A stretch of 64,000 nt of DNA, taken from positions 573-64,572 of the forward strand of contig JBAZHB010000003.1 of NCBI GenBank assembly GCA_041652535.1, in the 5' to 3' direction. Each line of letters opens with the position of its first letter. Position 1 is the stretch's first letter. Positions 3,444 through 45,079 of this stretch are shown piece after piece. The translations under genes and the position numbers were made by a program. The notes under the pieces were generated by a model. It made no database searches and was not told the origin of the DNA. It worked only from the letters and a program-made list of their open reading frames with translations. The DNA comes from Candidatus Babeliales bacterium (GTDB lineage Bacteria > Babelota > Babeliae > Babelales > RVW-14).

Positions 3444-3445
3444 TG

Positions 3446-4110: not shown

Positions 4111-4240
4111 GATATGATACTCCCTGAATGATACAACGCCTGGACTTCTGCTGCTGACATGAAGTGACCACATCGAACACAGGTCAGACCTTCAGGCGAC
4201 CACTTCATCAGATGGATTCCAATGAAGCATAAAAATTTTC

Positions 4241-6507: not shown

Positions 6508-6523
6508 ACTCCCTCTAAAAAAT

Positions 6524-17822: not shown

Positions 17823-18367
17823 GGTATCATCCCTGGAAGCATATAAGCATGGTTCCATTGAGGCGACACATAATAATAAATCTCATCGACAGAAGTATCA
17901 GAATGTATCGTCTTAAATTTAATACGATTTTCTTGAAGAACTTTGATGAGTGCCTCACCAATTTTATCCGATTCCGATTCAGTCTGGTTACGTCCAGCAG
18001 GATTATACTCCTTCGTCCTCGTGATATAGAGATTGATGTTGTCGAACTCATCCCACTTTTCTCTGACGAGATACTTGAAATTACGACTCTGCTTCTCCCC
18101 ATAATAGAGTGAGAGAATGAGAGGCGAGTCGGTAATGATATACTCGACTTTATCTTTCAGACGGAACTGTGCGTTGTATTGCTTTGCAAACACATACAGT
18201 TGGTCTGTCAGAATGTTCTGCGCTCCACGCCAAGTTACTCCTTTAGCATACTCGGCAACCAGTTCACAGTTAACGCCTTTGCGTTTGAGATATGTGAACA
18301 TCGCTGCTGCATGAGTGGACTTACCAGCACCAGGCGCTCCAACAAAGTTGATTACTTTCTGTTTCAT
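17819..18367 (-). CDS. P-loop nucleotide/polynucleotide kinase-like protein
   Basis: Walker A GAPGAGKST, EYAK, ITDSP. 182 aa. Confidence 0.6.
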   Translation of the reverse strand: MKQKVINFVGAPGAGKSTHAAAMFTYLKRKGVNCELVAEYAKGVTWRGAQNILTDQLYVFAKQYNAQFRLKDKVEYIITDSPLILSLYYGEKQSRNFKYLVREKWDEFDNINLYITRTKEYNPAGRNQTESESDKIGEALIKVLQENRIKFKTIHSDTSVDEIYYYVSPQWNHAYMLPGMIP

Positions 18368-19651: not shown

Positions 19652-20562
19652 AATTGATCCCTCAATGCGATGGCAATTGCTTCAGCGAACCTCACTGGAA
19701 CAGCATTGCCTATCATCTTATAGACGTTATCAAGCGTCGTCGATTTGAACTTGAATGAATCACGGAACGTCTGAATCCTGGCGCACTCGTGAGTCGATAG
19801 ACGGAACGCTTTAGATGGGTTGTCAAATTCCCATACGTCAGTGTCAACTTTGTGCATCGGTGATGAGTCTGGATGCAATGGTGTCTGCCTTCCACTTGCC
19901 ATGATGGTAAACGATGGCTGATTCCATGTGCGTCTGCGATTACGCGCCATATAAATTGGTGAGTAACTTCCCTTCCATCGGAGAGGATCGTCAATGTTCA
20001 CTGGTAAATCTTTAAGCGCGTCTTTGAGAACGAATGAAACTGGAATGTTATGTGGGAATGAAAACAACTGTTTGTCTTTCATCCCGACGATGATTACTCG
20101 CTTGCGGTCCTGGGGTACGCCATAGTCTGCGGCGTTTAAGAGTTTGTATGCGACGGTATATCCAAGTTTCTCAAACTGGTTGATGATGTCATTGAACGCA
20201 TCACCGTGATGCTTTGAGAGAATCCCTGCGACATTTTCTGCGACAAAGAAGCGAGGAGATTTATCTTTGAGGACACGGATATACTGATTGAATAACTGTC
20301 CTCGTTCATCTTTGATACCACGCATCTCACCAGCAGTAGACCACGACTGACACGGCGGGCCACCAATGATACCATCACTGTCAGGTATCTCATACGATGG
20401 TATGTCTTGAATCTTCGCTGTATTTAAAACGCAGCGATGATTAAGTCCATAAGTAGTTGCAACGCTACTCTCGCAATCGTTAGCGAAAGAGATAAAAAAG
20501 CCAGCATTTTCAAACCCTGTATCCAGACCACCGCATCCTGAAAATAAGGATACTAATCTCAT
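19648..20562 (-). CDS. dcm: DNA (cytosine-5) methyltransferase
   Basis: LFSGCGGLDTGF, GGPPCQSWS, ENV, QDRKRVIIVG, GNAVP. Confidence 0.9.
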   Translation of the reverse strand: MRLVSLFSGCGGLDTGFENAGFFISFANDCESSVATTYGLNHRCVLNTAKIQDIPSYEIPDSDGIIGGPPCQSWSTAGEMRGIKDERGQLFNQYIRVLKDKSPRFFVAENVAGILSKHHGDAFNDIINQFEKLGYTVAYKLLNAADYGVPQDRKRVIIVGMKDKQLFSFPHNIPVSFVLKDALKDLPVNIDDPLRWKGSYSPIYMARNRRRTWNQPSFTIMASGRQTPLHPDSSPMHKVDTDVWEFDNPSKAFRLSTHECARIQTFRDSFKFKSTTLDNVYKMIGNAVPVRFAEAIAIALRDQL

Positions 20563-23508: not shown

Positions 23509-23652
23509 TTATTCTTCCTCTAACTCCTCAATCTGTGAGAGTAGTTCTTCAACATCAACCACTTGTCGATACTGACAATCCTCTGGTCTAGCATCGAATG
23601 AATTGTTTCCAATCCATATACGTAAGGCGTTGGTCATGTCGTGTGCGCTCAT
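23509..23652 (-). CDS. Acidic mini-protein (47 aa)
   Basis: MSAHDMTNALRIWIGNNSF...EELEEE. ATGA overlap with the RNA ligase stop. Confidence 0.35.
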   Translation of the reverse strand: MSAHDMTNALRIWIGNNSFDARPEDCQYRQVVDVEELLSQIEELEEE

Positions 23653-24926
23653 GATTCTTCTTCCATATCCGACGAGCCTTCGAGTTTAATGTTGTCCTCT
23701 AGCACGTCGAACTCATAGGACTTATACTTCCATGCTTGCCACTGGTTGCAATCATTACGAATAACGACACCCTCTTTGATGTGGTGACCATCGAGAGTTG
23801 AACATCCGTTTGCATTTCCTTTACAGATTTCAACAAGTCTGTCGATGTCTCCACTAAACTCAAATGATTCGAGAATGGGAACTACATTTACACCAATCTG
23901 GTTACAACGAGTTACCATTTCTTCGGTGGTATAATCAACTTCATTACCATCCTCACCAGTGATAGACATACGATAGACATAGACTTCGTGCTGTCCTTCT
24001 TGACAACCATAGGTGAAGTTCATGTCCTTCCCGTAGCGTTTCGTCAGTTCTTTATCCTGAATCTTCTCTGTCTTACCACTCGGCATGATGAGAGAACTTC
24101 CGAGAGTGTAACCGACGATTTCATAGTAGACAGTTTCGCCTGGTTTGAGTTTACCGTCGAAGTATTTGTCATGCAGTTCTTTACGGAAGCCTTCTTTCTC
24201 CTGATAGAAACCAGTGTGTCGCTCCCAATCCTTTATTACGGTGTTGCGAGTGCCGCATACATACTTCCATGTGATTGTAGGCTTGATGAGTGTTCGTTTG
24301 CAGCAACGGTTTATTAAGGCTCCCCACCAAGTTTGCTGCGACATTAGTGCATGTGCTGAACGCTGTGATGTTCCATGAAGTTTCTCGGTTATCACAAGGT
24401 TCATGCCCTTCTCAATGTCGTCGAGTTTGTAGAGGATACGCTCTGTGTCGTGGTGCTTACGGAAGAATAAGAACTTCTCCTTCTGTGTTTCTGGTGCTGG
24501 ATTCGTGCCAGTGTATGCGTTACGTTTAACGACGTACTTCTCACAGAACGGATGCCCATGAAATGTGTTTAGTTCTTCTCCTTCGTTGAGGTCGTCGATA
24601 TTACCAGCATATTCAAGCGTCTTTAACGCTGTGAAGAAACCATTCGACTTCTGACCTCGGAGTTTCTGAACGCGCACCTTACCATTCTCGGCAAAGATAC
24701 CACCTGATTTTGTTCCATCTTCTGCAACCTTACGAACCAAGTCGTTGTATTGCAGATACTCTGGAAGCAGTCGTCCATCGGCAGGGAAGTAAAGTCCTAA
24801 CTGTCCTTCTCTTGTATCCTTACCGACGACAACTTCTTGTCCGAACACATCACCGACGACAAGATTGTCGGCTTTGGGTATAGGACGAAGGTTTTTAATC
24901 CTCGTCACATAAGCAAAGTAAGTCAT
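23649..24926 (-). CDS. ATP-dependent RNA ligase, DRB0094/Rnl5-like
   Basis: N-terminal OB-like IKNLRPIPKADNL. Motif I EKLHGTS, IV EGVVIR, V WKYKS. Confidence 0.65.
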   Translation of the reverse strand: MTYFAYVTRIKNLRPIPKADNLVVGDVFGQEVVVGKDTREGQLGLYFPADGRLLPEYLQYNDLVRKVAEDGTKSGGIFAENGKVRVQKLRGQKSNGFFTALKTLEYAGNIDDLNEGEELNTFHGHPFCEKYVVKRNAYTGTNPAPETQKEKFLFFRKHHDTERILYKLDDIEKGMNLVITEKLHGTSQRSAHALMSQQTWWGALINRCCKRTLIKPTITWKYVCGTRNTVIKDWERHTGFYQEKEGFRKELHDKYFDGKLKPGETVYYEIVGYTLGSSLIMPSGKTEKIQDKELTKRYGKDMNFTYGCQEGQHEVYVYRMSITGEDGNEVDYTTEEMVTRCNQIGVNVVPILESFEFSGDIDRLVEICKGNANGCSTLDGHHIKEGVVIRNDCNQWQAWKYKSYEFDVLEDNIKLEGSSDMEEES

Positions 24927-32905: not shown

Positions 32906-33078
32906 TACTCCTCACCACCAACCATAAACCATCCGATGTCGTTACCGTTTAAGTCACGAACATCGCCGTCTTGTTCTCCTGCTACGATACGATTTCTGAT
33001 GTTAAGGAGTATCTCTCCTATATCATCACGGTTCTGGAAGGCAGAACCACCACCGTTAAGGCATATGTCGCAATACAT
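32905..33078 (-). CDS. 57-aa protein ending in GGEE (candidate ligatable tag)
   Basis: Hand translation MYCDICLNGGGSAFQNRDDIGEILLNIRNRIVAGEQDGDVRDLNGNDIGWFMVGGEE. ATG lies 1 nt after the stop of the upstream gene. Confidence 0.45.
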   Translation of the reverse strand: MYCDICLNGGGSAFQNRDDIGEILLNIRNRIVAGEQDGDVRDLNGNDIGWFMVGGEE

Positions 33079-33079
33079 C

Positions 33080-33805
33080 TTAACACATCTCGTTAATTGC
33101 GTCGTCCATATCTCTGTCGTCGTCCTTAAAGGCTTTGTCGCCCTTAAGGAACTCGATTTCAGAGGCGTTCAACTTCTCATACTCGTCGAGGAACGGGCAT
33201 CCCTCGCATGTCTGCGACGTACATTCGTTGCACATCTTAAGCATGTCGTCCTCTAAACTGTCGGGGATATACTTATGAACCTCTTTGTAGTCGTCGTTGG
33301 AATAGAAGATACCCTCGTTGTAGAGGAACTCACCGATGATATACGCTTGCTTCTCCGTGAACACACAGAATTTTCCGTCGTCTTTGAGGAGTTGGTGTTC
33401 GATTTTCTTCGACTTGTCCATCGTCTTAATGAACATCATCGTATCGGAGATATACTTCGAGGCTTTCATGCCGTGAATAATCCCATTGTGAGCGACGGCA
33501 ACCTTACAATGCGCCCTCGTATTCTGCATCTCGTGAACGTCGTCAGTGATAGGGAACGGGTGGCAGTTACCTCGATTGACTGCGCCGTGTGTCGCCCATC
33601 GGAAGTGTATGCACACGTCTGCTTCCTTCACGGCTTGAAGGGATTTCCAGAGAGCATCCACGTCGAAGAATCCTTTGACGATATGAATCGTCTTACCTCG
33701 GCGATACATATATCCAGCGCCGTCTGGATTGTTCTCGAAGCAATTCTGGATGATGGTTTTCGACGGAAGGTTTGATTCTTTCGGCTTGACCACGATGATA
33801 CACAT
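33080..33805 (-). CDS. Class-II glutamine-amidotransferase-like Ntn hydrolase/thiol peptidase
   Basis: Start MCIIVV (Cys2 nucleophile), NPDGAG, HFRWATHG, NCHPF, HNG. C-terminal CNEC..CEGC. Confidence 0.7.
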   Translation of the reverse strand: MCIIVVKPKESNLPSKTIIQNCFENNPDGAGYMYRRGKTIHIVKGFFDVDALWKSLQAVKEADVCIHFRWATHGAVNRGNCHPFPITDDVHEMQNTRAHCKVAVAHNGIIHGMKASKYISDTMMFIKTMDKSKKIEHQLLKDDGKFCVFTEKQAYIIGEFLYNEGIFYSNDDYKEVHKYIPDSLEDDMLKMCNECTSQTCEGCPFLDEYEKLNASEIEFLKGDKAFKDDDRDMDDAINEMC

Positions 33806-33999
33806 TACTTGTTCCCCCATATTTTAACGGTGATAAATGCTATCGTGATGATGATAAGTCCGAAGCCTTCTTGGATTATCCATCCCATTAACATCCCCGC
33901 TACGAAGATGTTATAAGGGTACACGAGAAACGCTGCGATGGTGAGAACGCCCTTAAGAACGACGTTCATTGCGATTTGCTGTTTGGTAATTTTCTCCAT
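33805..33999 (-). CDS. Small membrane protein (64 aa)
   Basis: Hydrophobic throughout. 1-nt overlaps with both neighbours. Confidence 0.5.
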   Translation of the reverse strand: MEKITKQQIAMNVVLKGVLTIAAFLVYPYNIFVAGMLMGWIIQEGFGLIIITIAFITVKIWGNK

Positions 34000-35438
34000 T
34001 ACAATCCCCTCTCTGCGAGGTATTTCAGAAGTTCAGGGTAATCCTGAACGGCGTATTCCTTAATCTGCGCCCATGTCATATGCTCGATGGTATCCACGTC
34101 GAACACAGAGAGGCTGTGAAATAGACGGATTAACTGTATCGAGGCGATGATAGTGTTCACGTTTAACGTGCCTTTGAAGATACGAACCTCGATAGTTTCG
34201 GAGTTGGTGAGGTTTACGCATGTGTATCTGTCGTAGCGCTTCTCTGACTTTGCCTCATCTACAACCTTATGAGTTATCGGCGTGGCTTCGGATACCTCAC
34301 ACATGCGCTTGGCGTATGCGTCGATTTCGTTCAAGACCTCGTCGTAGATGGTGAAGTCATGCTTCCGTCGTGAGAACTTGACGATTTCAGTCCAGAACTT
34401 CTCGAAGAAGTAGATGAACGAGGTTATACGTTCCTCGGTTTTGCTGTCGTAGCAATCGCCGAAGGCTCGCCTGGACATATGAACGTGTAAACCACACGTC
34501 TTTGTTTCGTGTGAACGGTATCCCGCCGCCTTTGCGAGTTCGCAGACGTGTTCGTATGGACGGTGTTCCATTATCCACTCATACGTCATTGGGTGAGAGA
34601 TAATCTCGAAGCCCTTCCATCCGAGTGAACCATCGTGGCAGCAGTAGAAATTGTCGGAGAGTTTCGACATATCGAATCGTGAAACGTCGCCCTCGTCGAT
34701 TTCCATCTCTGTTCCGAAGTAAAGCAATCCGTCGCCTTTGAAGTCGAGTTCAGGGCGGTAGCCGTATTTATGAATACCGTTCTCGTCTGGCCTACCATCG
34801 CGTCCACTTGTTTCCCAACACGACTGACAGTAGCAACCGTCGTTGTCGTCATTGTCGTCGCAGCACATATCGTCGCTGTGAACGAAGTTGCCACAGTCAT
34901 TGCACCTCGTCCAATTATGGTTGTAACAACGGGTGCAGAGGGAACTATCGTTCTCGTCGTGATACATCTCGCGGTTGTTGAAATACTCACCGCAGTCGAT
35001 ACAGACTGAATAGTTATCCTCGTAGCAACCATCGCATACGCATCCATCCTCGACGGAGTGCGCGTCGTCCATGTGGATAATTCTGTCGCACATATAACAC
35101 GAGGTATAGTCGTCGTCAAAACACTTCTGACAGATGGCTGTTCCCTCGTATATGTGGCGCTCACCGTCAATGTCGTCGGTCATGAAGTCGCCACAGTCGT
35201 TGCACATCCAGAACTCGAAGATACTCCCGTCGAATATTTCCTCATACTCGAACCATGCGAGCAGTCTGGCGATGTCCTCGTCGTAGAATACGCGAGCGTT
35301 CAATTCGCAGTCCTCACTATCGTCACGTAGATAGTGTCTGACGAAATCGCAGTCGAGCGTTCCGTCTGCTTTCCTCGTCCAGACGAGTTCATGGGTGTAT
35401 CTGCGCCCACTCTCGTCGATGTAAACCATGTCTGTCAT
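33999..35438 (-). CDS. Amidoligase_2-family carboxylate-amine ligase fused to an N-terminal multi-zinc-ribbon array
   Basis: YFGTEMEI, GFEIISHP, CGLHVHMS, IEVRIFKGTL. At least 8 CxxC pairs in the first ~230 aa. ATG 35438 (track start 35444 is TTG). Confidence 0.7.
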   Translation of the reverse strand: MTDMVYIDESGRRYTHELVWTRKADGTLDCDFVRHYLRDDSEDCELNARVFYDEDIARLLAWFEYEEIFDGSIFEFWMCNDCGDFMTDDIDGERHIYEGTAICQKCFDDDYTSCYMCDRIIHMDDAHSVEDGCVCDGCYEDNYSVCIDCGEYFNNREMYHDENDSSLCTRCYNHNWTRCNDCGNFVHSDDMCCDDNDDNDGCYCQSCWETSGRDGRPDENGIHKYGYRPELDFKGDGLLYFGTEMEIDEGDVSRFDMSKLSDNFYCCHDGSLGWKGFEIISHPMTYEWIMEHRPYEHVCELAKAAGYRSHETKTCGLHVHMSRRAFGDCYDSKTEERITSFIYFFEKFWTEIVKFSRRKHDFTIYDEVLNEIDAYAKRMCEVSEATPITHKVVDEAKSEKRYDRYTCVNLTNSETIEVRIFKGTLNVNTIIASIQLIRLFHSLSVFDVDTIEHMTWAQIKEYAVQDYPELLKYLAERGL

Positions 35439-35460
35439 GCTCAATCATACTCCTTCAAAG

Positions 35461-35468
35461 TATTTAAA
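35461..35468 (-). promoter_or_regulatory. TTTAAATA box
   Basis: Lies 22 nt upstream of ATG 35438. Confidence 0.5.
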
Positions 35469-35524
35469 CCTTATGCCCAGGCGTTCCATCGTCGGGCTAT
35501 GCGCTTCCTCGGTAATGAGCCGAT

Positions 35525-35529
35525 AAAAA
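35525..35529 (-). terminator. T5 run after an operon-final stop
   Basis: Minus strand reads CGCTTTTTATCGG 3' of the stop at 35542. Confidence 0.3.
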
Positions 35530-35541
35530 GCGTGGGATAGG

Positions 35542-35844
35542 TTACGGTTTCCCCGTAACGATGAGATTTCTGATGCTGTTCAGTTGGTTTATCGCCAGCC
35601 GCACTTCACACTTTTCAGGGTATTTCTTGCCGAGATTGGTGAAGTCCTCGACGTTCTGCGCTGCGTAGAGTTTACAGTGGAAACAGTCGTGAAATTCTTT
35701 GTTCGTCTTGAAACTCTCACATGAAACGTCGGAGAAAGCCTTCTCTAACGCCATTGCGCTCTCATTGGCTAACCGAGCGAGGTATTCTTCGTCGTTCTCT
35801 TGTCGTGACTGCACGACTTTTATCGTCTGTCTTTCGTAGTTCAT
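35542..35844 (-). CDS. Hypothetical protein (100 aa); paralogue of 31460-31738
   Basis: ORF track. Shared ENDxE[FY]xAR and DCxxCK[ML]Y motifs. Confidence 0.5.
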   Translation of the reverse strand: MNYERQTIKVVQSRQENDEEYLARLANESAMALEKAFSDVSCESFKTNKEFHDCFHCKLYAAQNVEDFTNLGKKYPEKCEVRLAINQLNSIRNLIVTGKP

Positions 35845-35933
35845 GGTAACACCATAATTATACCGAGTAGTCCGAACGCGATACTGATTGTCGAGATTGA
35901 CACAATTGCATTGAACGTGGTTTGATACTTCAT
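35841..35933 (-). CDS. Membrane mini-protein (30 aa)
   Basis: MKYQTTFNAIVSISTISIAFGLLGIIMVLP. ATGA coupling. Confidence 0.3.
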   Translation of the reverse strand: MKYQTTFNAIVSISTISIAFGLLGIIMVLP

Positions 35934-35958
35934 GTTTTAACCTTCCAGCAACCCTTTA

Positions 35959-36120
35959 TTACGCTCTGCGAGAAATGGTCGGCAGTATTCTGCATGGATA
36001 CGCTATGGCAAAGAATGAACGTATGAGCATCTGCGACGCGCATACGAAGATGGTCGATAGTGCCACAGAGATTAAAACGACGTAGCCGATACAGGCCACG
36101 ACGAGAATCACGTCTATCAT
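35959..36120 (-). CDS. Membrane mini-protein (53 aa)
   Basis: MIDVILVVACIGYVVLISVALSTIFVCASQ... ATGA overlap with the upstream stop. Confidence 0.35.
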   Translation of the reverse strand: MIDVILVVACIGYVVLISVALSTIFVCASQMLIRSFFAIAYPCRILPTISRRA

Positions 36121-36266
36121 GGGATTTCCTTCACGCTTATCGTCAGTTGAATGTGCTTACCCTCGTGACGTGCGATGAGTTCACCGAAAGAAAGAGAACC
36201 CGCGTCGTAGACTAACGACGGCAGTTCTCCGTATTTCTCGACTTTCCCACGTATGCTGACGGGCAT
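36117..36266 (-). CDS. Hypothetical protein (49 aa)
   Basis: Internal ATG 36266 lies 1 nt after the upstream stop. Confidence 0.4.
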   Translation of the reverse strand: MPVSIRGKVEKYGELPSLVYDAGSLSFGELIARHEGKHIQLTISVKEIP

Positions 36267-36267
36267 G

Positions 36268-36630
36268 TTAATGCTCCGACGGGAGGATGATAATGCCGCC
36301 CTCAACCCATACCGAGAACTCGCCTTCAGGGAAGTCCGTCATTGAATACGACTGTTTGTAGAGGAGATTGTCGTTGCCATCCTCGATGTATGACGTTGCT
36401 TTCCCGCCTTTGACGACGAGTTTCCAGACCTGAAAGTTGTGTGCGCGCACCTTCGGCTTCATGCGAGCGACGACGCTCATATCCGAAATCCACCAATGAC
36501 ACGAGGCTATCTCGATAAGGTCGGCAACTCCGTCTGTATGTGGCAGACAGAATCCGTTGCGGTGATACTGCGTCGTTCCGATGTGTCCTCGAAGCGCCGC
36601 CTTAAGTTCGTCAGTATTTTTGAATTGCAT
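36268..36630 (-). CDS. DUF6876-like protein (plasmid/phage leading-region family)
   Basis: GTTQYHRNGF..HTDGVADLIEIASCHWWISD pattern, by recollection. Confidence 0.5.
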   Translation of the reverse strand: MQFKNTDELKAALRGHIGTTQYHRNGFCLPHTDGVADLIEIASCHWWISDMSVVARMKPKVRAHNFQVWKLVVKGGKATSYIEDGNDNLLYKQSYSMTDFPEGEFSVWVEGGIIILPSEH

Positions 36631-36651
36631 AATACTACTTCTCCTTATTAG

Positions 36652-36659
36652 TATTTAAA
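36652..36659 (-). promoter_or_regulatory. TTTAAATA box
   Basis: Lies 21 nt upstream of ATG 36630. Confidence 0.5.
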
Positions 36660-36668
36660 GCCATCGGC

Positions 36669-36971
36669 TTAATACAGTCCACCCTCGGTGGCTCCCATGA
36701 ATCCGCACGTCGGGCATACGAACTCTCCGTCGCCTTTGCGCGCTACGTCCTCGTCAGTTTCCGTCTTACAGTTCGGGCATATGAGGAAAAGTTTCCCCGT
36801 TAATACACCTGGGTTCGGTGTTCCTGCTGTCGCTATGCCGTCACCGACCTTTAGAACGCTACCGCACGATGTGCATGTAGTGGTGTCGTCGGTGCTATCG
36901 TATTCCCCGTCTATTTCCTCGCCGCAGTTAGGGCAGTAATAGCGGAATACATCGGTAAAAGTTTTCTTCAT
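36669..36971 (-). CDS. Triple zinc-ribbon protein (100 aa)
   Basis: CPNCGE..CTSCGS, CPNCKT..CPTCGF. Start moved to MKKTF (ATG 36971). Confidence 0.5.
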   Translation of the reverse strand: MKKTFTDVFRYYCPNCGEEIDGEYDSTDDTTTCTSCGSVLKVGDGIATAGTPNPGVLTGKLFLICPNCKTETDEDVARKGDGEFVCPTCGFMGATEGGLY

Positions 36972-37047
36972 AAAATCCTTCTGCACTCGATGGTGCGACA
37001 CGTCGTAGAGGCATTGAACCTCTAAAAATAGGGAGCAATCTCCGACG

Positions 37048-37353
37048 TTACTCGTGGCGCTTGAACGTGAAGTTGTTCGCCTCAAGTTCCTTCTTGATAC
37101 GTCTGGCCTCGTCGATGAGCGTGTTGAACGAACAATGTCCGTCGTAGATGCAGTTGTCGCAACGAACGCCAGCGCATACACAGCCCGACGATATTACTTC
37201 GAGTGCGGCGTAGAATTTGTTGTCCTCGATACGCTTGAGGATAATCTCTGCGTCGGTGATAGCGACTGTGTTATCCCGTATTTCTGCTCGCAATACATCG
37301 TTCTTCGCCTTTCTCTCGGCGACAAACGCAGTTAACTCTTTGACTCTCGACAT
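37048..37353 (-). CDS. Hypothetical protein (101 aa)
   Basis: ORF track. Confidence 0.5.
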   Translation of the reverse strand: MSRVKELTAFVAERKAKNDVLRAEIRDNTVAITDAEIILKRIEDNKFYAALEVISSGCVCAGVRCDNCIYDGHCSFNTLIDEARRIKKELEANNFTFKRHE

Positions 37354-37361
37354 GATTCACC

Positions 37362-37622
37362 TTAACAAGTGGTTTCGCTCTGGACGAGTACAGACGTTGA
37401 CTCACCCGCGTCCATTGGGAAGCCGAGTTCTTTTGGCACGTCGTCGTACATCTCAACACCCATCTCGGTGGAGATACGGCAGATGAGAGCAATACGCTTG
37501 CCATGCGCGTCTACTGCCTCGACGGCAACGGAGTTCTTATAGGTCGATGCCTCAACGAGCCGAAGGAAGAATGGTAACTGCTGCTTCGGCGTTGCTTTAG
37601 TGAATATTCCTTTGAGTTTCAT
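37362..37622 (-). CDS. Hypothetical protein (86 aa); first gene of the leftward arm
   Basis: Internal ATG 37622 follows GAGGA. Confidence 0.45.
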   Translation of the reverse strand: MKLKGIFTKATPKQQLPFFLRLVEASTYKNSVAVEAVDAHGKRIALICRISTEMGVEMYDDVPKELGFPMDAGESTSVLVQSETTC

Positions 37623-37704
37623 GATATTACCTGTCCTCGGTGATACGAGGTAGACGAACGTGTGGATATGAACCACTTAAGACGAATACGCTATACGCGT
37701 TCGT

Positions 37705-37736
37705 TTAATATATAATATATATTACGCGCGTTCTGA
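37705..37736. repeat. Left copy of an imperfect inverted repeat (AT-rich box + CGCGCG + TTCTG)
   Basis: TTAATATATAATATATATTACGCGCGTTCTGA. Partner lies at 40739-40773. Confidence 0.6.
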
Positions 37737-37752
37737 CAACGAGGTGAAATTT

Positions 37753-37950
37753 ATGGTATGGTTTGAGGGTTGGTTGATTTTGATGCTGCTTTTTTACGTC
37801 GAACATCGACTGACACCCACCAAAATCCCAAACCTACGCATATGCAAACCCATGTGGCATAAATTGGAACGTGCAGAAGGCTTAATTTGTCGAAAGAAAC
37901 CGTTAAAAACCTTTGAATACCACCATTTCCTGTGCAAATATGCCGATTAA
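37753..37950 (+). CDS. Possible small membrane protein (65 aa)
   Basis: GAGGTGA lies 5 nt before ATG 37753. N-terminal WFEGWLILMLLFYV. It is an isolated plus-strand ORF in the control region. Confidence 0.25.
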   Translation: MVWFEGWLILMLLFYVEHRLTPTKIPNLRICKPMWHKLERAEGLICRKKPLKTFEYHHFLCKYAD

Positions 37951-38133
37951 TCTGCGTTTATTTCGCAAATCTAACCGTTTTTCACGCTTTAAATTTTTAA
38001 GCGGGTAACGTGCGTTTAATGCTCAAAATCGCGTTTATAACGGTAGAGATTTCTACACGTCGATGCAACGCCCTTTGAGTAATGCCACTCCGAGGAACGA
38101 ACCTCGTAGAATTGACGCTTCAAAAGTGGTAGT

Positions 38134-38146
38134 TTTCCAGTGGAAA
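38134..38146. promoter_or_regulatory. ORB-like dyad TTTCCAGTGGAAA (candidate Orc1/Cdc6 origin recognition box)
   Basis: Matches the TCCAGTGGAAA core of archaeal ORB elements as I recall them. The dyad loop is too short for a hairpin. Confidence 0.4.
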
Positions 38147-38149
38147 TGC

Positions 38150-38461
38150 TTAAATCTCAATCACGTCTGGTAGCCTCGAAGAAATCGTGGACTTTTTTGT
38201 TAATGCTTTTTGATTAACTACGGTTGCTTTGCACTTCTCTGCGCCTTTTAAGCGACTGACGTGATGCGCGCATACACGCTTCGGCTTTACTACGTCGATT
38301 GTGACGTTCTCATAGGCGACAGTTTCGTCTTTTAACGTGATGCTCACGACGTTTCCGAGGTTAATCGCCCTCGAATTGAAGTAAACACGACTGTTTTTCA
38401 GACGATACGCATGACACTTGTATGTATCAAAGAGGGTTTTAATGACGATATACTGCGCCAT
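38150..38461 (-). CDS. Hypothetical protein (103 aa)
   Basis: ORF track. Coupled to two upstream mini-ORFs. Confidence 0.5.
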   Translation of the reverse strand: MAQYIVIKTLFDTYKCHAYRLKNSRVYFNSRAINLGNVVSITLKDETVAYENVTIDVVKPKRVCAHHVSRLKGAEKCKATVVNQKALTKKSTISSRLPDVIEI

Positions 38462-38592
38462 TAAAGCATCCCCGTTAATACGTCGAACTTTTTCACGCTC
38501 ATGTGCGCTATCGCGCTTTTTATGCGAGCCGCTACGCTATACGCCTGGGCCTGCGTTCGTACATCGTCTTTAAGAACGTCGAAGCGCTTCAT
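38461..38592 (-). CDS. Mini-protein (43 aa)
   Basis: MKRFDVLKDDVRTQAQAYSVAARIKSAIAHMSVKKFDVLTGML. TAATG and ATGA coupling. Confidence 0.35.
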   Translation of the reverse strand: MKRFDVLKDDVRTQAQAYSVAARIKSAIAHMSVKKFDVLTGML

Positions 38593-38765
38593 ATGTGAAC
38601 CATCCAGCCACCGAAGGCATTTGTGTCGAGCATCTCGTATGGCACGAGGATTTTGTTGGCGAGTCTGACGTATTTAACGTCGTTCAGTTCGACGATTTCC
38701 ATGACGATACTGCGCTCGTGAATGTTTAACTTCACAACGTCGTATTTCTGTGGTGTGTATTCCAT
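38589..38765 (-). CDS. Mini-protein (58 aa)
   Basis: MEYTPQKYDVVKLNIHERSIVMEIVELNDVKYVRLANKILVPYEMLDTNAFGGWMVHI. GAGGT lies 7 nt before the ATG. Confidence 0.45.
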   Translation of the reverse strand: MEYTPQKYDVVKLNIHERSIVMEIVELNDVKYVRLANKILVPYEMLDTNAFGGWMVHI

Positions 38766-38782
38766 GTTCTTACCTCTGCTAC

Positions 38783-38797
38783 GCCCTTATTAAGGGC
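38783..38797 (-). promoter_or_regulatory. Palindrome GCCCTTATTAAGGGC containing a TTAATAAG box
   Basis: The AT core lies about 20 nt upstream of ATG 38765. Confidence 0.3.
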
Positions 38798-39611
38798 TAC
38801 GAGAACACGACGTTTGACCGTCGCTGTTCCCCATAGTTGCTACGGAACGCTGCGCCCTTATAACACAATGCGCTCACACGCCGTAGATAAGTGAAAGAGA
38901 TTCATCCGTCGTTGGTTACGTCGCAGTCGAGATTGGGCAACGTCGTAACCGCTGACGGCAATTTGTTTCACGTCGTTCTGTCGGCGTTGCACCCACACTA
39001 CGATGTAATGTCCAGATGTCAAGGGCGATTTCAGACGTGTTCTCCGACGACATTCACGACGGTTCATACGAGGGAACGCATCTGGCACTCTCCTCATCTT
39101 CGTCGTTGCAGTCGTCAGCACATCGTTGTCGCCGATTGAGCCGACGGTTTACAGACGAGAGCGACGAAGCCACTGAAGGCTCACGAGATACAACGAAAGG
39201 TGTCTACGTCGAAACTCTGACGGCTCACTCCGCGCTGCTATCCGTTCTCACGGTAGACGGTGTTGGGTAGTTTACCCCGTCAGTTACCTCGACGCATTTG
39301 ATGCACCGCCTTTGTTCCCGTTGATTAACGCCTTAACCCCCCTGATTGACGATACAATCGCGGCATAGATTGTGTGCCGACTGTATCCCGAAGGCTTCGA
39401 CGTTGCTCACGAGGGTGTCCGAAGATAACAAGGATGCCACCCGACGAGAACTCCGACGGCTTTCACGACGCATCTCTCGTCGCTGTCGTCTGTTCCACCG
39501 ATTGCTTCGTCATACGAGAACCTCGGATTTGGGATTCATCTCGTATCCATCGCCGTTTTAACGGCAAACCCTTCGACGGTGGTGAACCGTCTTATCCGTC
39601 GTCGGAAAGGG

Positions 39612-39767
39612 TTATGCGAGGATAAGTGCTTCCTCGGTGCAGTAGTGCAGATTCATGCTGTCGTCGGCTATTACGACGAGGGTTGGTATGCGAGGGCTGT
39701 AACCTATGACGGTAGCCATCTCGGTAGCCATGTAGATTACCCTCTGTCCTGCGACGTATGGTTCCAT
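39612..39767 (-). CDS. Mini-protein (51 aa)
   Basis: MEPYVAGQRVIYMATEMATVIGYSPRIPTLVVIADDSMNLHYCTEEALILA. AGGGTG lies before the ATG. Confidence 0.4.
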   Translation of the reverse strand: MEPYVAGQRVIYMATEMATVIGYSPRIPTLVVIADDSMNLHYCTEEALILA

Positions 39768-39770
39768 TGC

Positions 39771-39968
39771 TTACACCCTCTGTGCCATTGTGCAGCGAAC
39801 ATCTACCTTCTGTCCACGCTCATACTGCCTTACTGCGGCAGTCGTCATTAGGTTGCTCATACACTGTGCGCGTTCTGTTATCGACGTGCAGAGAACTACA
39901 CTCCGAGGGAGAACGACGTATTTGCTCTCGTTGCTGTTCGTTTTTGGGCTTGCTTCGATTTTTTGCAT
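39771..39968 (-). CDS. Hypothetical protein (65 aa)
   Basis: ORF track. A TTTAAATA box lies exactly 21 nt upstream of its ATG. Confidence 0.45.
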   Translation of the reverse strand: MQKIEASPKTNSNESKYVVLPRSVVLCTSITERAQCMSNLMTTAAVRQYERGQKVDVRCTMAQRV

Positions 39969-39989
39969 GATGGAACATCGACTCCCAAG

Positions 39990-39997
39990 TATTTAAA
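39990..39997 (-). promoter_or_regulatory. TTTAAATA box
   Basis: Lies 21 nt upstream of ATG 39968, the same spacing as at 36652 and 35461. Confidence 0.5.
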
Positions 39998-39999
39998 CC

Positions 40000-40380
40000 T
40001 TTCGCTCTGACGAGAAACACGTCGGTGACGTCTGACCTCACGAGAGAGCCATCGACCTGCCCATCGTCCTTCTTCTCCCCGAACATCGACGTGACCTCCG
40101 AGGTGTTCAGGCGTGGAGTGCCTTGCCCTCCCACGTCGTACCAGACGAGCCACACGTCAGTAGCCACCTCGACCCATCGACGTGAGCGCACCACCCCGCC
40201 CGCACCGTCGAAGAATCGAACGCGAAGGCACACGTCAGTGTCACCCCGAAGCCAACGTCAGTGTCCGAGGTGCGTCCTCTACGCGCACATCTACGCTATG
40301 CCTATGCGCATACGTCACATCTATGTGCCTACGAGTGTGTTATTACGTGCTACGAGCATACGTGTGTGTTACTTATGGGT
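40000..40380. repeat. ORF-free block of degenerate direct repeats
   Basis: GACGT(CT)GACCTC(A)CGAG at 40027 and 40088. (CAC)ACGTCAGTG at 40151, 40229 and 40254. CACATCTAyG..TGCCTAyG at 40286 and 40316. CTACGAG at 40329 and 40350. Confidence 0.55.
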
Positions 40381-40430
40381 GTTACTACCAACTATGGCGT
40401 ATGGCTTTCTCTTATTAGTAAGGTCCTGGA

Positions 40431-40467
40431 GATAAGTATATATAGTATAAGTATTAGTATATCAATC
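40431..40467. other. AT-rich AGTATA-repeat tract (candidate DNA-unwinding element)
   Basis: GATAAGTATATATAGTATAAGTATTAGTATATCAATC. Confidence 0.35.
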
Positions 40468-40480
40468 TTTCTATCCTTCT

Positions 40481-40518
40481 ATCAGACGAGAACATAGACG
40501 AACATCAGACGAGAACAT
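40481..40518. repeat. Tandem 15-nt iteron ATCAGACGAGAACAT x2 (23-bp period)
   Basis: Exact copies at 40481-40495 and 40504-40518. Confidence 0.6.
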
Positions 40519-40738
40519 CGACGTTACTTTCCTCTTGCTTATCTACCTTTGGGCATAAGTATTTATACCAGGACTTACTTACTTATGTGTATATAAGGCT
40601 TACGGCGAAAAATCAGGCCTGATAGGCGGCTTACATATAAAAGCAGCCACTTACGCAAAATTTTTCAGAAATTTCAACTCTCGTCCTCGTAGACCTATCG
40701 CATTTTAGTGATACCTTTATATACCTATCAGTGATAAT

Positions 40739-40773
40739 CAGAACGCACACGCGCGAATATATTATATATTATT
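40739..40773. repeat. Right copy of the imperfect inverted repeat
   Basis: CAGAACGCACACGCGCGAATATATTATATATTATT. Its reverse complement aligns to 37705-37736. Confidence 0.6.
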
Positions 40774-40880
40774 CAGTGTTTCCTCGATCCAATTACTAAA
40801 ATGCCTCAATTTAGTTCTCATTAGTAGTCCTTCGGACAAATTTCATGTACGGACTTTCTATCATAGTATTAACCAATCTC

Positions 40881-40888
40881 TATAAATG
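40881..40888 (+). promoter_or_regulatory. TATAAATG box upstream of the structural arm
   Basis: Lies 32 nt before ATG 40921. AAGGAA SD lies in between. Confidence 0.3.
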
Positions 40889-40920
40889 CAGAGAAAAACC
40901 TTACATATTAAGGAATTACT

Positions 40921-41887: not shown

Positions 41888-43378
41888 ATGAAGATGGCAG
41901 TAAAAACAAAAGTAGACCGAAGCGAGTATTTTTCTAAAGACGGCTATGAATACGCCTCTGTAATTCTCCGTATGCGCCAGGACCCAATCTGGTTTCTGCG
42001 AGAACACTGTGGCGTGGAGCCGTTTCCAGCACAGGAAGAAATGATTCGTGAGTTCTATCGAGCCAAATACAACCCAACTCTCCCGCCTTACCGTCATCTT
42101 GTCCTTGCACTTGGTATGCGGTCAGGTAAAACGGCGATGAGTGGGATGTTTGGAGCCATCGAACTCATGGACATATGCACTATTTCCAACCCATCGAAGC
42201 ATTATAAACTGCTGAAAGGACAGGGCATTGCGCTTCTTGCGTTAGCCACTTCACTTGACCAGGCCCTCGAAGGAGTGTTCGGCAACACAGTGAATCTCCT
42301 TGAAGGCTCCGAATTTGTGCAGACGTGGATGGATTTCAAATTTAAATCGGACACAATCGAATGTCCAGACAAGAATGTGTTCTTCAAGGCTCTCGGGTCT
42401 TGGGCAAGCACAGCAGTTGGACGTTCAGCAAAGGCGGTTTTCTTTGACGAACTTGATAACTTTGAAGATACAACATCTAAACGAGGTGCAACCGAGGTTT
42501 ACTCGCGTGTTATTAAAGCCACCGATACGCTCGGTGCCGATGGACATACCTTCGCTCTGTCCTCACTCAAATCTCCAAACGGAATAATGATGAACCTCTG
42601 TAAAGATGCAGAGGATCAGAAGCGTCGTCTTGGAAATGCTTGCAACACCCTTGCATACATCCGACCAACGTGGGAAGTGAATCCTTTCTTCAATAAAGAA
42701 ACGCTGATGAAGGAGCATGAGAACAATCTGGCAGCATTTTGGAGAGATTTCGGATGTCAGCCGTCAATCTGGAACGCACTAGCGTTTCCAAATGGTGTTG
42801 TCCTCTCGAAGATGGACAATGTGCTTCTTGCACCGCCAGCAAGTGTCATCAACCAACCCTACCGTGTAATGGCAATCGATCCTGCCGTAAAGAAAGATGC
42901 CTTCGGTATCGCTTGTGGCTATCGTCATCGTTCAGGGAAGATAATTGTTGATGGTGTGCATCGTTTCCAGAAGAAAGAGGGTAACATCATGATTATGCCG
43001 TCAGAAATTAAGGCATATCTCAATCGTGTGCTGCCAACTCTTAACGTCAAAGTGTTCCTCCATGATACTTGGATGTATTCTGACATCATAGAGGAGATAA
43101 TCCACAAAGGAATAAAGACCGAGCAGCATATAGTCAACTACGATGATTACTCTACATGGCTCGATCTTGAATCCAGTGGAAAAGTGACCGTTGTTTATGA
43201 TGATGTCCTTCGTTTAGAATGTGACAAACTCATCGTGACACCAGGACAGAAGCCAAAGATAGACCACCCATCGGCTGGTTCTAAAGATATGGCTGATTCT
43301 GTCGCAAATTGTATGAGATATATTAATGAAAACAAATTGAATACGCTCCCGAAAATGACGGGATATATGGGGTTTTAA
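41888..43378 (+). CDS. terL: Terminase large subunit
   Basis: Walker A GMRSGKT, Walker B FFDELD, C-terminal nuclease-like AIDPA. Followed by the portal gene. Confidence 0.85.
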   Translation: MKMAVKTKVDRSEYFSKDGYEYASVILRMRQDPIWFLREHCGVEPFPAQEEMIREFYRAKYNPTLPPYRHLVLALGMRSGKTAMSGMFGAIELMDICTISNPSKHYKLLKGQGIALLALATSLDQALEGVFGNTVNLLEGSEFVQTWMDFKFKSDTIECPDKNVFFKALGSWASTAVGRSAKAVFFDELDNFEDTTSKRGATEVYSRVIKATDTLGADGHTFALSSLKSPNGIMMNLCKDAEDQKRRLGNACNTLAYIRPTWEVNPFFNKETLMKEHENNLAAFWRDFGCQPSIWNALAFPNGVVLSKMDNVLLAPPASVINQPYRVMAIDPAVKKDAFGIACGYRHRSGKIIVDGVHRFQKKEGNIMIMPSEIKAYLNRVLPTLNVKVFLHDTWMYSDIIEEIIHKGIKTEQHIVNYDDYSTWLDLESSGKVTVVYDDVLRLECDKLIVTPGQKPKIDHPSAGSKDMADSVANCMRYINENKLNTLPKMTGYMGF

Positions 43379-43380
43379 AA

Positions 43381-43536
43381 ATGAAATTGGACTATGGTAA
43401 GATTACTGATGAAATAATCGCCGAGTTTCCTGACCTCAAAAGACAGGAAGCGGTAGTGTTTGAAGTTGTGAAAAAAGTATCTCTCGCATATGGATGTGCA
43501 TTAAATGACTGCTTCAAAGAAAAAGACGACAACTAA
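43381..43536 (+). CDS. Possible mini-protein (51 aa) overlapping the annotated portal start
   Basis: MKLDYGKITDEIIAEFPDLKRQEAVVFEVVKK... Confidence 0.3.
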   Translation: MKLDYGKITDEIIAEFPDLKRQEAVVFEVVKKVSLAYGCALNDCFKEKDDN

Positions 43537-45079
43537 ATCGACTGCGCTGACAACCACAGAGAAGCATGAGTTCATGAATTCAGATGTCAATTCTTTTACT
43601 CTGCCAAACTCTAATAAGATCATCGCAGGACAAATGATTACAGGAAACCTAACAGCATACATCATGGGAATGTCTAACTTCGACGCTCTCACTGACTGTC
43701 AGGTTTTCGAGCAGATGTATAAGCATGAGGCTGACATCGGCTCTGGTATAGACCGAGTATCTACCCTCGTATCAGAGGCGTTCAAAGGAATTGTTCCAAA
43801 GGACATCGGAACTAAACTCGAAAAGAAAGAGGAGCGCTGCCTGAAGGATGCAAAGAAAATCTATGAGGCAATGCGCATTGATAATCTCGCTGAAGCATAC
43901 ACCGAAATTATAATGACACAGGGAAATCTATTTATCGACTACCGAAACAAACTCGCTCCGTCGATTCTTCCCAACAATCTTGTTACATTCATTCCTGATA
44001 TGCAGTATCGTAACAATGCGGCTATCGTTCTATTCACAGACCCGAAGTATCTTGTCGTCAATGAGCAGTTGAAACCACAGTCGCCAAGTTACGTCATCGA
44101 GCGCGAGAACTATATTCATATCAAGTATAAAGATTCACCCGTTATGGCGATGGACAATCTCTCCAGGACCACATTCGGCATCTACTCAATCTCTCCTCTA
44201 CATCGCTGTATTATTCCCGTCTGGTGGAAACGTCAGATCACAATGATTGATATTCTGCTTCGTGCAAAGATGATACCTAGAGAACACCACCAGATCAACG
44301 CTGAAATCTTCAGTCTGGAAGGTTATCAGGGTACTCCTGACCAGCAACGCGCTGCACAGGCCGCAGATGTTCAATTGTTTATCTCGAACTACATCAACAC
44401 CATCAAGAATCAGGCAGTTGATCAGGGATACATCACACTTGACACAGTGGACATCAAATCCGTCGGTGGAGATAGTAAGTATCTTCAGAGCAACGATCTC
44501 CTGAAACAACTTCAGGGCGACATCTACACTGGACTGAACGTTCCTGCATCAATCGTCAATGGTAAAGATGCTGGTTCCTATGCTAGCGAACTAGTAGTAT
44601 CCAATTACGTGTCAGCAAAGGTAATACAGATAGCCAAGAAGATTAAGTTCGTGCTTCTCAACATGATTCGTGACAGACTCTTATTAATAGATCCCACGTA
44701 TCCAATAGAGATTGTAGACATCAAACTCGAACTGATCCTCTCAATGAACCGTCTTGAATCCTTCCGTCAGTTATCCCTCATGGTTGCTGCTGGTGTCTTT
44801 ACACAGGACGAGATTCGTGCTATCGTGGCATACGACGCGCTGACTGATGAACAGAAGAAGAACATTGTTTCGACGGGTAAACTTGTCATTGGTGATCCAG
44901 GTGAGGAGCCAGAGGAACCAGAGTTTCCAAAGGCGCCTGGTGAAAAGATAGGTGTAACCGCCAACAATGTCGCTGCTAATGCAGCAAGAGGTGGCAACGG
45001 AGAAGATGCTGCCTATCCTGATACCGACGAAAGTGCTGGTTCTCATACCAGAGATGCGTCGCAAAACATTTTGAGATAG
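43505..45079 (+). CDS. Portal protein (start may be ATG 43574)
   Basis: 524 aa, directly after terL. Call rests on size and position only. Confidence 0.6.
   Translation: MTASKKKTTTKSTALTTTEKHEFMNSDVNSFTLPNSNKIIAGQMITGNLTAYIMGMSNFDALTDCQVFEQMYKHEADIGSGIDRVSTLVSEAFKGIVPKDIGTKLEKKEERCLKDAKKIYEAMRIDNLAEAYTEIIMTQGNLFIDYRNKLAPSILPNNLVTFIPDMQYRNNAAIVLFTDPKYLVVNEQLKPQSPSYVIERENYIHIKYKDSPVMAMDNLSRTTFGIYSISPLHRCIIPVWWKRQITMIDILLRAKMIPREHHQINAEIFSLEGYQGTPDQQRAAQAADVQLFISNYINTIKNQAVDQGYITLDTVDIKSVGGDSKYLQSNDLLKQLQGDIYTGLNVPASIVNGKDAGSYASELVVSNYVSAKVIQIAKKIKFVLLNMIRDRLLLIDPTYPIEIVDIKLELILSMNRLESFRQLSLMVAAGVFTQDEIRAIVAYDALTDEQKKNIVSTGKLVIGDPGEEPEEPEFPKAPGEKIGVTANNVAANAARGGNGEDAAYPDTDESAGSHTRDASQNILR

Follow-up and report, generated by a model that had tools for sequence, protein, structure and literature searches.

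The window considered here, that is, the whole 64-kb stretch of DNA that was analysed, is part of the genome of a tailed virus in which the genes run leftward up to approximately 40.3 kb and rightward beyond that point. Within its leftward part, positions 38766 to 39611 form a block which an earlier reading of the sequence alone (the sequence-only reading) had picked out as free of open reading frames (ORFs) and rich in G + C and CpG, and as a candidate for either a large structured RNA or a decayed gene. As set out below, this block is very likely the gene for a large and highly structured non-coding RNA (ncRNA) read from the minus strand, with a size of about 750-850 nt in the virus of the window and of 830-1000 nt in its relatives. 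It fills exactly the space between two minus-strand ORFs, beginning right behind the upstream stop codon and ending right before the downstream start codon, in a leftward operon with the order 65-aa ORF, 51-aa ORF, RNA, 58-aa ORF:

39989-40004, minus strand: conserved promoter-like motif CGAAAGGUUUAAAUAC / CGAAAGGTTTAAATAC, resembling a B recognition element (BRE) with TATA box and preceding the first ORF of the leftward operon by about 21 nt
39612-39767, minus strand: 51-aa ORF, upstream of the block
38766-39611, minus strand: the whole conserved non-coding block, very likely a large structured RNA gene as judged from homologues, conservation and consensus fold
38825-39564, minus strand: probable extent of the stable RNA, projected from the RNA contigs of a homologue (L001) via alignment A3, with approximate ends
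38773-38777, minus strand: Shine-Dalgarno-like AGAGG ahead of the start codon (38763-38765) of the 58-aa ORF
38589-38765, minus strand: 58-aa ORF, downstream of the block

With respect to coding capacity, the absence of an ORF claimed by the sequence-only reading holds, as the longest ORFs that can be drawn mechanically (82-87 aa) mostly start with GTG, overlap one another and are rich in arginine. A reassignment of stop codons was considered as well and rejected, since TAA, TAG and TGA are mixed in all six frames and recoding opens none of them. The composition of the block had also been described largely correctly: the count of 35 G + C among the 60 bases at 39121-39180 is exact, and the block has a G + C content of 53.5% as compared to about 43% in the window and an observed/expected CpG ratio of 1.54 as compared to about 1.0. 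The enrichment of CpG in particular words is likewise real, but to call it overwhelming was too strong, given that 45% of the 93 CpGs lie in CGACG, CGTCG, ACGTC or GACGT words, in contrast to 12% elsewhere. Moreover, the richness in G + C and CpG is true of the block but not specific to it, because high G + C, CpG and CGACG frequencies span about 33-40.3 kb. The anomaly starts rising at about 32-33 kb, and CGACG/CGTCG words are enriched over the rest of the window by a factor of approximately 5 at 33-40.3 kb and of 10 in the block; the relatives have the same composition peak at their own copy of the block and the adjacent GC-rich spacer. Since the anomaly is regional, composition alone cannot single out the block, in contrast to conservation, covariation and RNA abundance, which do.

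The enrichment of CpG and of CGACG and CGTCG (also ACGACG and ACGTCG) is an observation in its own right and extends over 33000-40300 in the window, 6000-8000 in L001, 7000-9000 in L014 and 1-3000 in L009, the latter three being contigs of related viruses. In the coding part it is strand-asymmetric, with ratios of CGACG to CGUCG of 11:0, 9:2 and 11:3 per kb in the minus-sense transcripts at 34-39 kb, while within the RNA both are found in balanced numbers and for the most part pair with one another. As possible causes, codon bias, a site for a protein or a methylase, or an RNA-RNA interaction may be proposed. Iterons or tandem repeats inside the block were also sought and rejected, as only short chance families of the CGACG type were found there; direct repeats are located nearby at 40485-40524.

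Relatives of the virus were gathered from IMG/VR, JGI metagenomes and Logan/ENA assemblies with the terminase as anchor. In every contig that extends far enough upstream of the terminase gene, blastn and nhmmer reveal a homologue of the block in the same place and orientation, on the strand opposite to the terminase gene and at a distance of about 2.3 kb from it, so that the block is kept among related viruses in the form of 11 distinct homologous sequences of approximately 830-1000 nt. The contigs carrying it (L001/3/8, L002, L009/10, L013, L014, L015, L017, L018, L020 and L021/22) come from groundwater, landfill, wetland and sludge, and the small genes flanking it are mostly unalignable at the DNA level across these relatives. 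In comparison to the closest relative, L013, the islands of the block are about 95% identical and the inserts between them have been replaced wholesale. The overall identity of the block to L013 (86.2%) nevertheless exceeds that of the adjacent 58-aa gene (77.4%), and its substitutions are distributed over the three codon positions without phase (35/41/40), in contrast to the excess at third positions in the 58-aa gene (11/8/21). The indels in this comparison have lengths of 9, 46, 5, 3, 1, 10, 1, 1, 3, 1 and 2 and thus include ones that are not multiples of three. No ORF is conserved in any homologue, and the stop-free segments of the block have no match in Pfam or PHROG at E up to 1.

In four independent cases a metagenome contig terminates within the block or less than about 100 nt from it (L015 1, L018 1, L021 1 and L020 1-105). 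This is likely because conserved islands common to co-occurring strains, together with hypervariable inserts, break assembly graphs, and it is worth knowing when mining further copies.

The distribution of the block is narrow, being limited to a small clade of uncultivated tailed viruses. According to nhmmer and a covariance model (CM) of the 5' core, it is found only in viruses with a terminase at least 73% identical, and it is absent by nhmmer and by this model (CM R1) from the relatives L169, L170 and L171, the terminases of which are 45-47% identical. Neither did about 150 other fetched loci contain a homologue. Two degenerate DNA patterns run over IMG/VR returned only three known contigs and 27 chance matches, and a loose DNA pattern run over the GTDB genomes returned at least 119 stretches, those listed being chance matches only, with no homologue detected by nhmmer among the fetched loci. 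As a separate observation, genes are missing from two stretches of L170, a distant relative with a terminase of 47% identity, in a comparable position upstream of the terminase gene (2192-4238, about 2.0 kb, and 4594-5948, about 1.35 kb). These contain no ORF of more than 101 aa, no Rfam match, no tRNA and no homology to the block RNA, and relatives of L170 are not found in IMG/VR; they could hold another unrecognised RNA gene.

The fold of the RNA was predicted with RNAalifold on an alignment of nine full-length homologues, with shuffled and slid alignments as controls. The predictions comprise 127-201 pairs, and the consensus fold has 201 pairs in 36 helices arranged in several domains, the core of which is built by three sets of long-range helices, with conserved islands alternating with swappable peripheral hairpins. 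Canonical pairing is found in 88.4% of the cells, in contrast to 76.9 ± 0.6% in shuffled and 31-47% in slid alignments, and 94 of the 201 pairs have changed on both sides, in contrast to 50 ± 4.4 in shuffled alignments, of which none out of 500 reached 94, and 25-40 in slid ones. As this consensus structure came from the same sequences that were used to score it, a hold-out test was performed: a fold derived from four sequences was 79.8% canonical in the five unseen ones (33-44% when slid) and was accompanied there by 60 compensatory, i.e. doubly changed, cells (12-26 when slid). Even the minimum free energy fold of the window sequence alone is kept to 61% in the other homologues, as compared to 33-38% when slid. 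Covariation is therefore strong both by the number of doubly changed pairs and by the hold-out test. The main elements of the fold are as follows, in the order in which they occur from 5' to 3' on the transcript:

39568-39611, minus strand: 5' flanking hairpin (CCCUUUCC...GACGGU-UCAC-CACCGUC...GAAGGG), immediately following the stop of the 51-aa ORF
39505-39552, minus strand: most conserved local hairpin of the 5' core (helix 8), with 11 pairs that are 100% paired across homologues and a near-invariant CC-N-AAAUCC loop
39444-39496, minus strand: 5' strands of three stacked long-range helices, which have their partners at 39146-39166, 39185-39199 and 39306-39319 and close a domain of about 300 nt
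39146-39319, minus strand: 3' strands of the long-range helices and the conserved hairpins that they enclose (helices 11-14, 19 and 24), with a near-invariant AACCUU(C/U)CGUU
38980-39145, minus strand: second long-range domain, in which 39140-39145 pairs with 38980-38985 and 39130-39138 with 39020-39027
38906-38958, minus strand: 18-pair hairpin (helix 31), identical to the GGTTACG..CGTAACC stem of the sequence-only reading, with compensatory changes in 11 of the 18 pairs
38801-38831, minus strand: 3' helix GGGGAAC.GCGACG-GUCAAA-CGUCGU.GUUCUC (helix 34), with a conserved GUCAAA loop
38783-38797, minus strand: terminal hairpin GCCC-UUAAUAA-GGGC (helix 36), with a conserved NUAAUAA loop and a single occurrence in the window

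The inner helix of the 5' flanking hairpin (helix 1, 39586-39591 with 39575-39580) has compensatory changes in four of its six pairs; the hairpin may be a processing or boundary element rather than a part of the mature RNA. Helix 8 contains four pairs changed on both sides and an invariant U·G, and CM R1, which was built from the 5' core, finds only one site in the window (39449-39567, 127.9 bits). In helices 10-14, G-C is exchanged to A-U, U-A or C-G at several pairs, with ACAGACGA/UCGUCUGU being replaced by ACAGGACUG/CAGUCCUGU in L002; the long-range helices that start at 39444-39496 were also found as an inverted repeat (I7). Helices 25 and 26 of the second domain have changed on both sides in 8 of 13 pairs, with 95-96% of the cells paired, and the interior of this domain is variable and absent from L002, L020 and L022. 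Helix 34 has four pairs changed on both sides, e.g., CGACG/CGUCG to CUACG/CGUAG in L002, and may be part of the leader of the downstream mRNA rather than of the stable RNA. All four stem-loops listed by the sequence-only reading are present in the block, and three of them belong to the covariation-supported fold, but the ACAATC..GATTGT stem-loop is situated in a variable insert and is not conserved. Pairing from end to end and a processing stem of the bulge-helix-bulge type between the two ends were considered and rejected, as the terminal hairpins vary independently of each other (L014, L002) when judged by eye.

The strand can be read from the same alignment. In the minus-strand reading there are 164 G·U cells but only 45 A·C cells, and optional peripheral hairpins are capped on this strand by UACG (in five homologues), GAAA, GCAA and GUAA tetraloops. 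Because of the excess of G·U and of these UACG and GNRA tetraloops, the RNA is placed on the minus strand. The thermodynamic z-scores are negative for both strands (-4.6 and -6.3) and do not discriminate between them.

Transcripts of the block are found in nature. The contigs of three small activated-sludge metatranscriptomes (X28-X30, 125-195 Mb) were mapped on 14 kb of the virus represented by L001, the homologue of which they contain almost word for word. There is one RNA contig of 841 nt (L001 6013-6853, depth 10.3), one of 810 nt (6035-6844, depth 7.2) and a pair of 365 and 222 nt (6099-6463 and 6618-6839), all of them inside the 965-nt block of L001 at depths of 4-10, with the adjacent genes at zero depth and the rest of the virus represented by scattered pieces of 150-470 nt at depths of 2-6. 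In contrast, the metagenomes X38 and X39, which likewise bear the label 'activated sludge metagenome' and served as a DNA control, cover the same 14 kb evenly at depths of 9-13, with long contigs running through the block. Since the RNA contigs are confined to the block and reach the highest depth there while DNA coverage is even, the block of L001 is a discrete transcript and the most abundant viral one in these three samples. Short contigs of relatives also occur in a wetland metatranscriptome and in wastewater complementary DNA (cDNA) libraries. When projected onto the window, the RNA contigs span about 39564 to 38825, and therefore the hairpin at 39568-39611 and the helix and hairpin at 38783-38831 may serve as boundaries or in processing, or may form the leader of the following gene.

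In the virus of the window the motif at 39989-40004 is the likely source of the primary transcript. The sequence around it (39937-40008) is 80-87.5% identical in those relatives that cover the region, and similar promoter-like copies are located on the minus strand upstream of other leftward genes:

35460-35475, minus strand: promoter-like copy
36651-36666, minus strand: promoter-like copy

In L002, a second copy of the motif, GCGAAGGTTTAAATAC (approximately 3130-3150), takes the place of the 5' hairpin directly upstream of the RNA core, an arrangement consistent with an RNA that can be transcribed independently, and also with where the RNA contigs have their 5' ends. For the virus of the window, it is probable that the RNA is first transcribed jointly with the 65-aa and 51-aa ORFs and processed afterwards. 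No terminator was found after the block.

In comparison with known families, cmscan against Rfam 15 (4227 families) assigned the block to none. There is no match at the gathering thresholds in the whole window, none at E up to 10 in 38300-40100, none at E up to 5 in six homologue loci, and none at the gathering thresholds in six loci of which three carry the block and three belong to distant relatives; sub-threshold matches are restricted to chance similarities with microRNA and long ncRNA models (E 0.3-4). It follows that the RNA is not GOLLD, ROOL, OLE, HEARO, raiA, RNase P, a group I or II intron or a known small ribozyme. ARAGORN finds neither tRNA nor transfer-messenger RNA in the 64-kb window and no tRNA in L001, L009 and L014. 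Its call of a tRNA-Phe(aaa) in L002 (2648-2724, minus strand), which overlaps a conserved hairpin matching 39167-39182 of the window, was rejected as a probable false positive, as the anticodon is in an aberrant position and the call is confined to L002 and not conserved. Furthermore, the flanking small ORFs have no Pfam or PHROG match and reveal no recognisable partner protein, no palindromic loop with covariation is seen in the fold, and literature searches returned no description of this RNA. The hallmarks of large ornate ncRNAs in general, i.e. non-coding sequence, compensatory long-range helices and a discrete RNA, are all found, the last of them for the L001 homologue. We are therefore highly confident that the block encodes a functional, expressed and structured ncRNA of a class that is absent from Rfam. 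The ornate viral ncRNA that the sequence-only reading had offered as one of its options is thus borne out by conservation, covariation, the lack of a frameshifted gene and the discrete transcript.

Several points weigh against this conclusion. The family is narrow, with its 11 distinct sequences and terminases at least 73% identical, and therefore the covariation rests on few and related sequences; in addition, MAFFT aligned the variable regions and the 5' end imperfectly. The many CGACG/CGUCG words make alternative pairings possible, as exemplified by the CGACGAG within 39466-39484, which can pair either locally with the following CGUCG (across a loop of 5-7 nt that is GNNUA-like in most homologues) or distally with the CGUCGCU within 39146-39166. 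Covariation from G-C to A-U favours the long-range helix, yet the local hairpin is also conserved and competes with it at 39478-39484, so that the consensus fold may be partly wrong or switching. The ends of the transcript come from strandless contigs in low-depth assemblies of a homologue and not of the virus of the window. Also, the 3' helix and hairpin are immediately adjacent to a ribosome-binding site, and a cis-regulatory role would fit that part too. Finally, unlike GOLLD and ROOL, the block has no neighbouring tRNA gene.

As regards the action of such an RNA, the leftward small-gene operon that carries it is presumably early. The RNA would be transcribed from the motif at 39989-40004 along with the two small ORFs and be freed by processing near the flanking hairpins, while in L002 it would apparently be made from its own copy of the promoter. 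During infection it might then act in trans as a stable architecture, that is, as a self-assembling or protein-binding scaffold or the core of a ribonucleoprotein (RNP) in the manner of GOLLD and ROOL; this mechanism is proposed by analogy and only tentatively. A tie to the genes for RNA-end repair, i.e. RtcB, RNA ligase and the CCA/poly(A)-type nucleotidyltransferase, and an RNA-based conflict with the host might also be envisaged. More boldly, it is conceivable, if rather doubtful, that the RNA is the founding member of a hitherto undescribed class of giant viral RNA machines, be it a self-assembling RNA-only cage or ring unrelated to GOLLD and ROOL or a new large ribozyme or RNP core used early in infection.

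The genes in question belong to a virus that has no blastn match of the window among the INPHARED phages and for which the nearest terminases of deposited phages are distant (21-29% identity). It stems from a groundwater metagenome, and related sequences are known from samples of landfill, wetland, soil, sediment, freshwater and wastewater/sludge; about 40 DNA runs contain 5-22% of the words of the block. Its genes for DNA metabolism comprise a family-B DNA polymerase, ribonucleotide reductase, an ATP-dependent DNA ligase and thymidylate synthase, and those for RNA-end repair comprise RtcB, RNA ligase and a PolyA_pol-head (class II CCA/poly(A)) nucleotidyltransferase. Further features of the window are:

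41888-43378: terminase large subunit
43505-45079: portal protein
36669-37181: TFIIB-type zinc-ribbon protein
19648-20562: C5 cytosine (DNA) methylase
1598-2224: ERCC4 nuclease
40427-40444 and 40550-40567, minus strand: TATA-like repeats TATATATACTTATCTCCA and TATAAATACTTATGCCCA
40481-40523: tandem pair ATCAGACGAGAACAT(A/C)GACG

The set for RNA-end repair and modification (PolyA_pol-head nucleotidyltransferase, RtcB, RNA ligase and a cpYpsA SLOG protein; 13700-14404, 18476-19651, 23649-24926 and 17373-17858) resembles a module for the repair of tRNA or RNA damage and could be functionally tied to the large RNA. As to the host, the BRE+TATA-like promoter motif, the TFIIB-type zinc ribbon and the ERCC4 nuclease are hints of an archaeon, against which speak RtcB, with its relatives of the bacterial type at 43-49% identity, and the class II nucleotidyltransferase, which is of bacterial type as well; the late proteins include no lysin pointing to a host. 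The cumulative GC skew has its minimum at approximately 40-42 kb, in the divergent intergenic region beside the block. Between the divergent operons there is a second long stretch without a convincing gene (40005-40920), which is poorly conserved among relatives, silent in the metatranscriptomes and may be a regulatory or origin region. Its part from 40005 to 40420 is rich in G + C and CGACG and carries only an ORF of 137 aa (39820-40233, upstream of the block), which is not conserved and was therefore judged spurious.

Among the other explanations for the block, the one that survives best, while still being unlikely, takes the RNA to be a trans-acting decoy or sponge in counter-defence, which would titrate or misdirect a host factor for defence by targeting or sensing RNA (an anticodon nuclease, a CRISPR-type effector or an RNA-binding toxin) alongside the RNA-repair enzymes. 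It would be in line with an RNA that is abundant relative to the viral mRNAs and encoded in a leftward small-gene operon beside a divergent promoter region, with a combination of RtcB, RNA ligase and CCA/poly(A)-type nucleotidyltransferase that is typical of tRNA-damage repair, and with the tRNA-like fold seen by ARAGORN within the L002 copy. However, that call concerns one homologue, with its anticodon in an aberrant position and a T-loop-like hairpin that is not conserved, and there is no match to the Rfam tRNA model at E up to 10. The conserved architecture of 36 helices, moreover, exceeds known decoys in elaboration, and neither a defence system nor a host was found.

Quite improbable is a cis-acting leader or untranslated region, the fold of which would control translation, stability or processing of the leftward transcript, e.g., for the 58-aa gene. 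The missing terminator and a last hairpin only 5 nt from the ribosome-binding site of the next ORF would be expected of such an element, as would the fact that the window has no promoter-like motif directly upstream of the block and that the conserved 3' helix and hairpin fall outside the RNA contigs. Yet with 750-1000 nt and 36 helices the block far exceeds known bacterial and phage leaders, the RNA contigs stop 63-85 nt before the downstream start codon with the downstream genes at zero to low depth, the flanking genes change between relatives while the block stays, and the promoter copy of L002 is positioned to transcribe the RNA alone.

A self-processing RNA, either a new class of ribozyme or a very divergent and possibly circularly permuted group I or II intron that excises itself from the operon transcript, is very improbable. 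In size, multi-domain fold, long-range helices and GNRA tetraloops the RNA is similar to large ribozymes, a discrete RNA is obtained from a probably longer primary transcript, and the virus encodes the RtcB ligase. But the intron and ribozyme models of Rfam give no match in the window (E up to 10) or in the homologue loci (E up to 5), and the flanking ORFs are each intact, having a start and a stop codon of their own, and are non-homologous between relatives (as seen for the upstream ORF in the window and L013), which leaves no exons to join. Neither is there a joined or skipped form among the RNA contigs, nor an intron-encoded protein.

An element acting and conserved at the level of double-stranded DNA would be an origin of replication, a packaging site or an array for protein binding, with incidental palindromes; the sequence-only reading had named a cis-acting replication or packaging element among its options. 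This explanation is hardly credible any more. The block does adjoin the divergent region with the minimum of the GC skew and the direct repeats at 40485-40524, it contains many short CGACG/CGTCG words, and several metagenome contigs break inside it. However, compensatory changes keep pairs that are hundreds of nucleotides apart, the predominance of G·U over A·C is sensible only for one RNA strand, UNCG and GNRA tetraloops are present, accumulation is specific to RNA while DNA coverage is flat, and no iteron-like repeat family exists inside the block; covariation and strand together therefore rule out a double-stranded DNA element. A decayed protein gene, finally, can be set aside in spite of the run of same-strand small genes around the block and its stop-free stretches of up to 104 codons, because the block out-conserves an intact neighbouring gene, changes without codon phase and by non-triplet indels, shows no trace of a frameshifted gene, no conserved ORF and no similarity to Pfam or PHROG families at E up to 1, and gains no frame by stop reassignment.

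The known large (>500 nt) and intricately folded ncRNAs other than those of the ribosome, RNase P and self-splicing introns amount to only a handful, e.g., OLE, GOLLD, ROOL and raiA, each of which has raised questions that were new. To these a large and structured viral ncRNA at the block would add an unrelated class, and its support in silico is unusually complete, as it includes a conservation higher than that of a neighbouring gene, held-out covariation, the strand and natural abundance. Recent cryo-electron microscopy has revealed RNA-only nanocages (PMC12286853). The RNA of the block is short enough for in vitro transcription and defined well enough for immediate structural work, and a virus with RNA-end repair enzymes offers a new system in which the role of large phage RNAs becomes testable. 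More generally, compositionally odd, ORF-free blocks in the contigs of uncultivated viruses merit screening for RNA genes.

Of the known systems, the pRNA of phi29 is a virus-encoded part of a multimeric RNA machine, with a size of about 120-174 nt and a gene near the packaging genes, and occurs in phi29-like podoviruses with protein-primed genomes. The block RNA is 5-7 times larger, and there is no evidence of its contact with portal or terminase. To the group I and II introns of phages it is similar in size, in a multi-domain fold closed by long-range helices and in its GNRA tetraloops, but it matches none of their covariance models, interrupts no gene, has no intron-encoded protein and leaves no spliced junction in the RNA contigs. 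With OLE, raiA and HEARO it shares a large, conserved and covariation-supported fold and a biochemical role that is unsettled. It differs from them, however, in the lack of a match to their Rfam models and in being viral without a recognisable partner, while OLE and raiA are chromosomal, HEARO is associated with transposons (IscB), and all of them have partner genes.

ROOL (Rumen-Originating, Ornate, Large) is an RNA of phages and prophages with about 580 nt, many helices and pseudoknots, which forms an RNA-only nanocage and has no known protein partner (PMC12286853). The block RNA is likewise a large and ornate viral ncRNA, but it is longer, has no match to ROOL in Rfam, is not located beside tRNA islands and comes from groundwater, landfill, wetland and sludge. 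GOLLD, too, is encoded by phages and prophages, comprises about 800 nt or more, has a multi-helix fold that was found by covariation and contains conserved as well as variable parts, and its expression rises in phage infection (PMC12286853). The block RNA is similar to GOLLD in its size, its viral origin, its ornate fold, its conserved islands with variable inserts and its high natural abundance. GOLLD is a homo-oligomeric nanocage (a 14-mer) held together by kissing loops and A-minor contacts. In contrast to GOLLD, the block RNA has no match to the corresponding Rfam model even at E up to 10 and no tRNA gene near or inside it or anywhere in the 64-kb window, its conserved core is in the 5' and middle part and not in the 3' half, and its gene resides in a small-gene operon beside the terminase region. 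Within the known kind of large ornate viral ncRNAs it is thus a new class, nearest in kind to GOLLD and ROOL and a member of neither.

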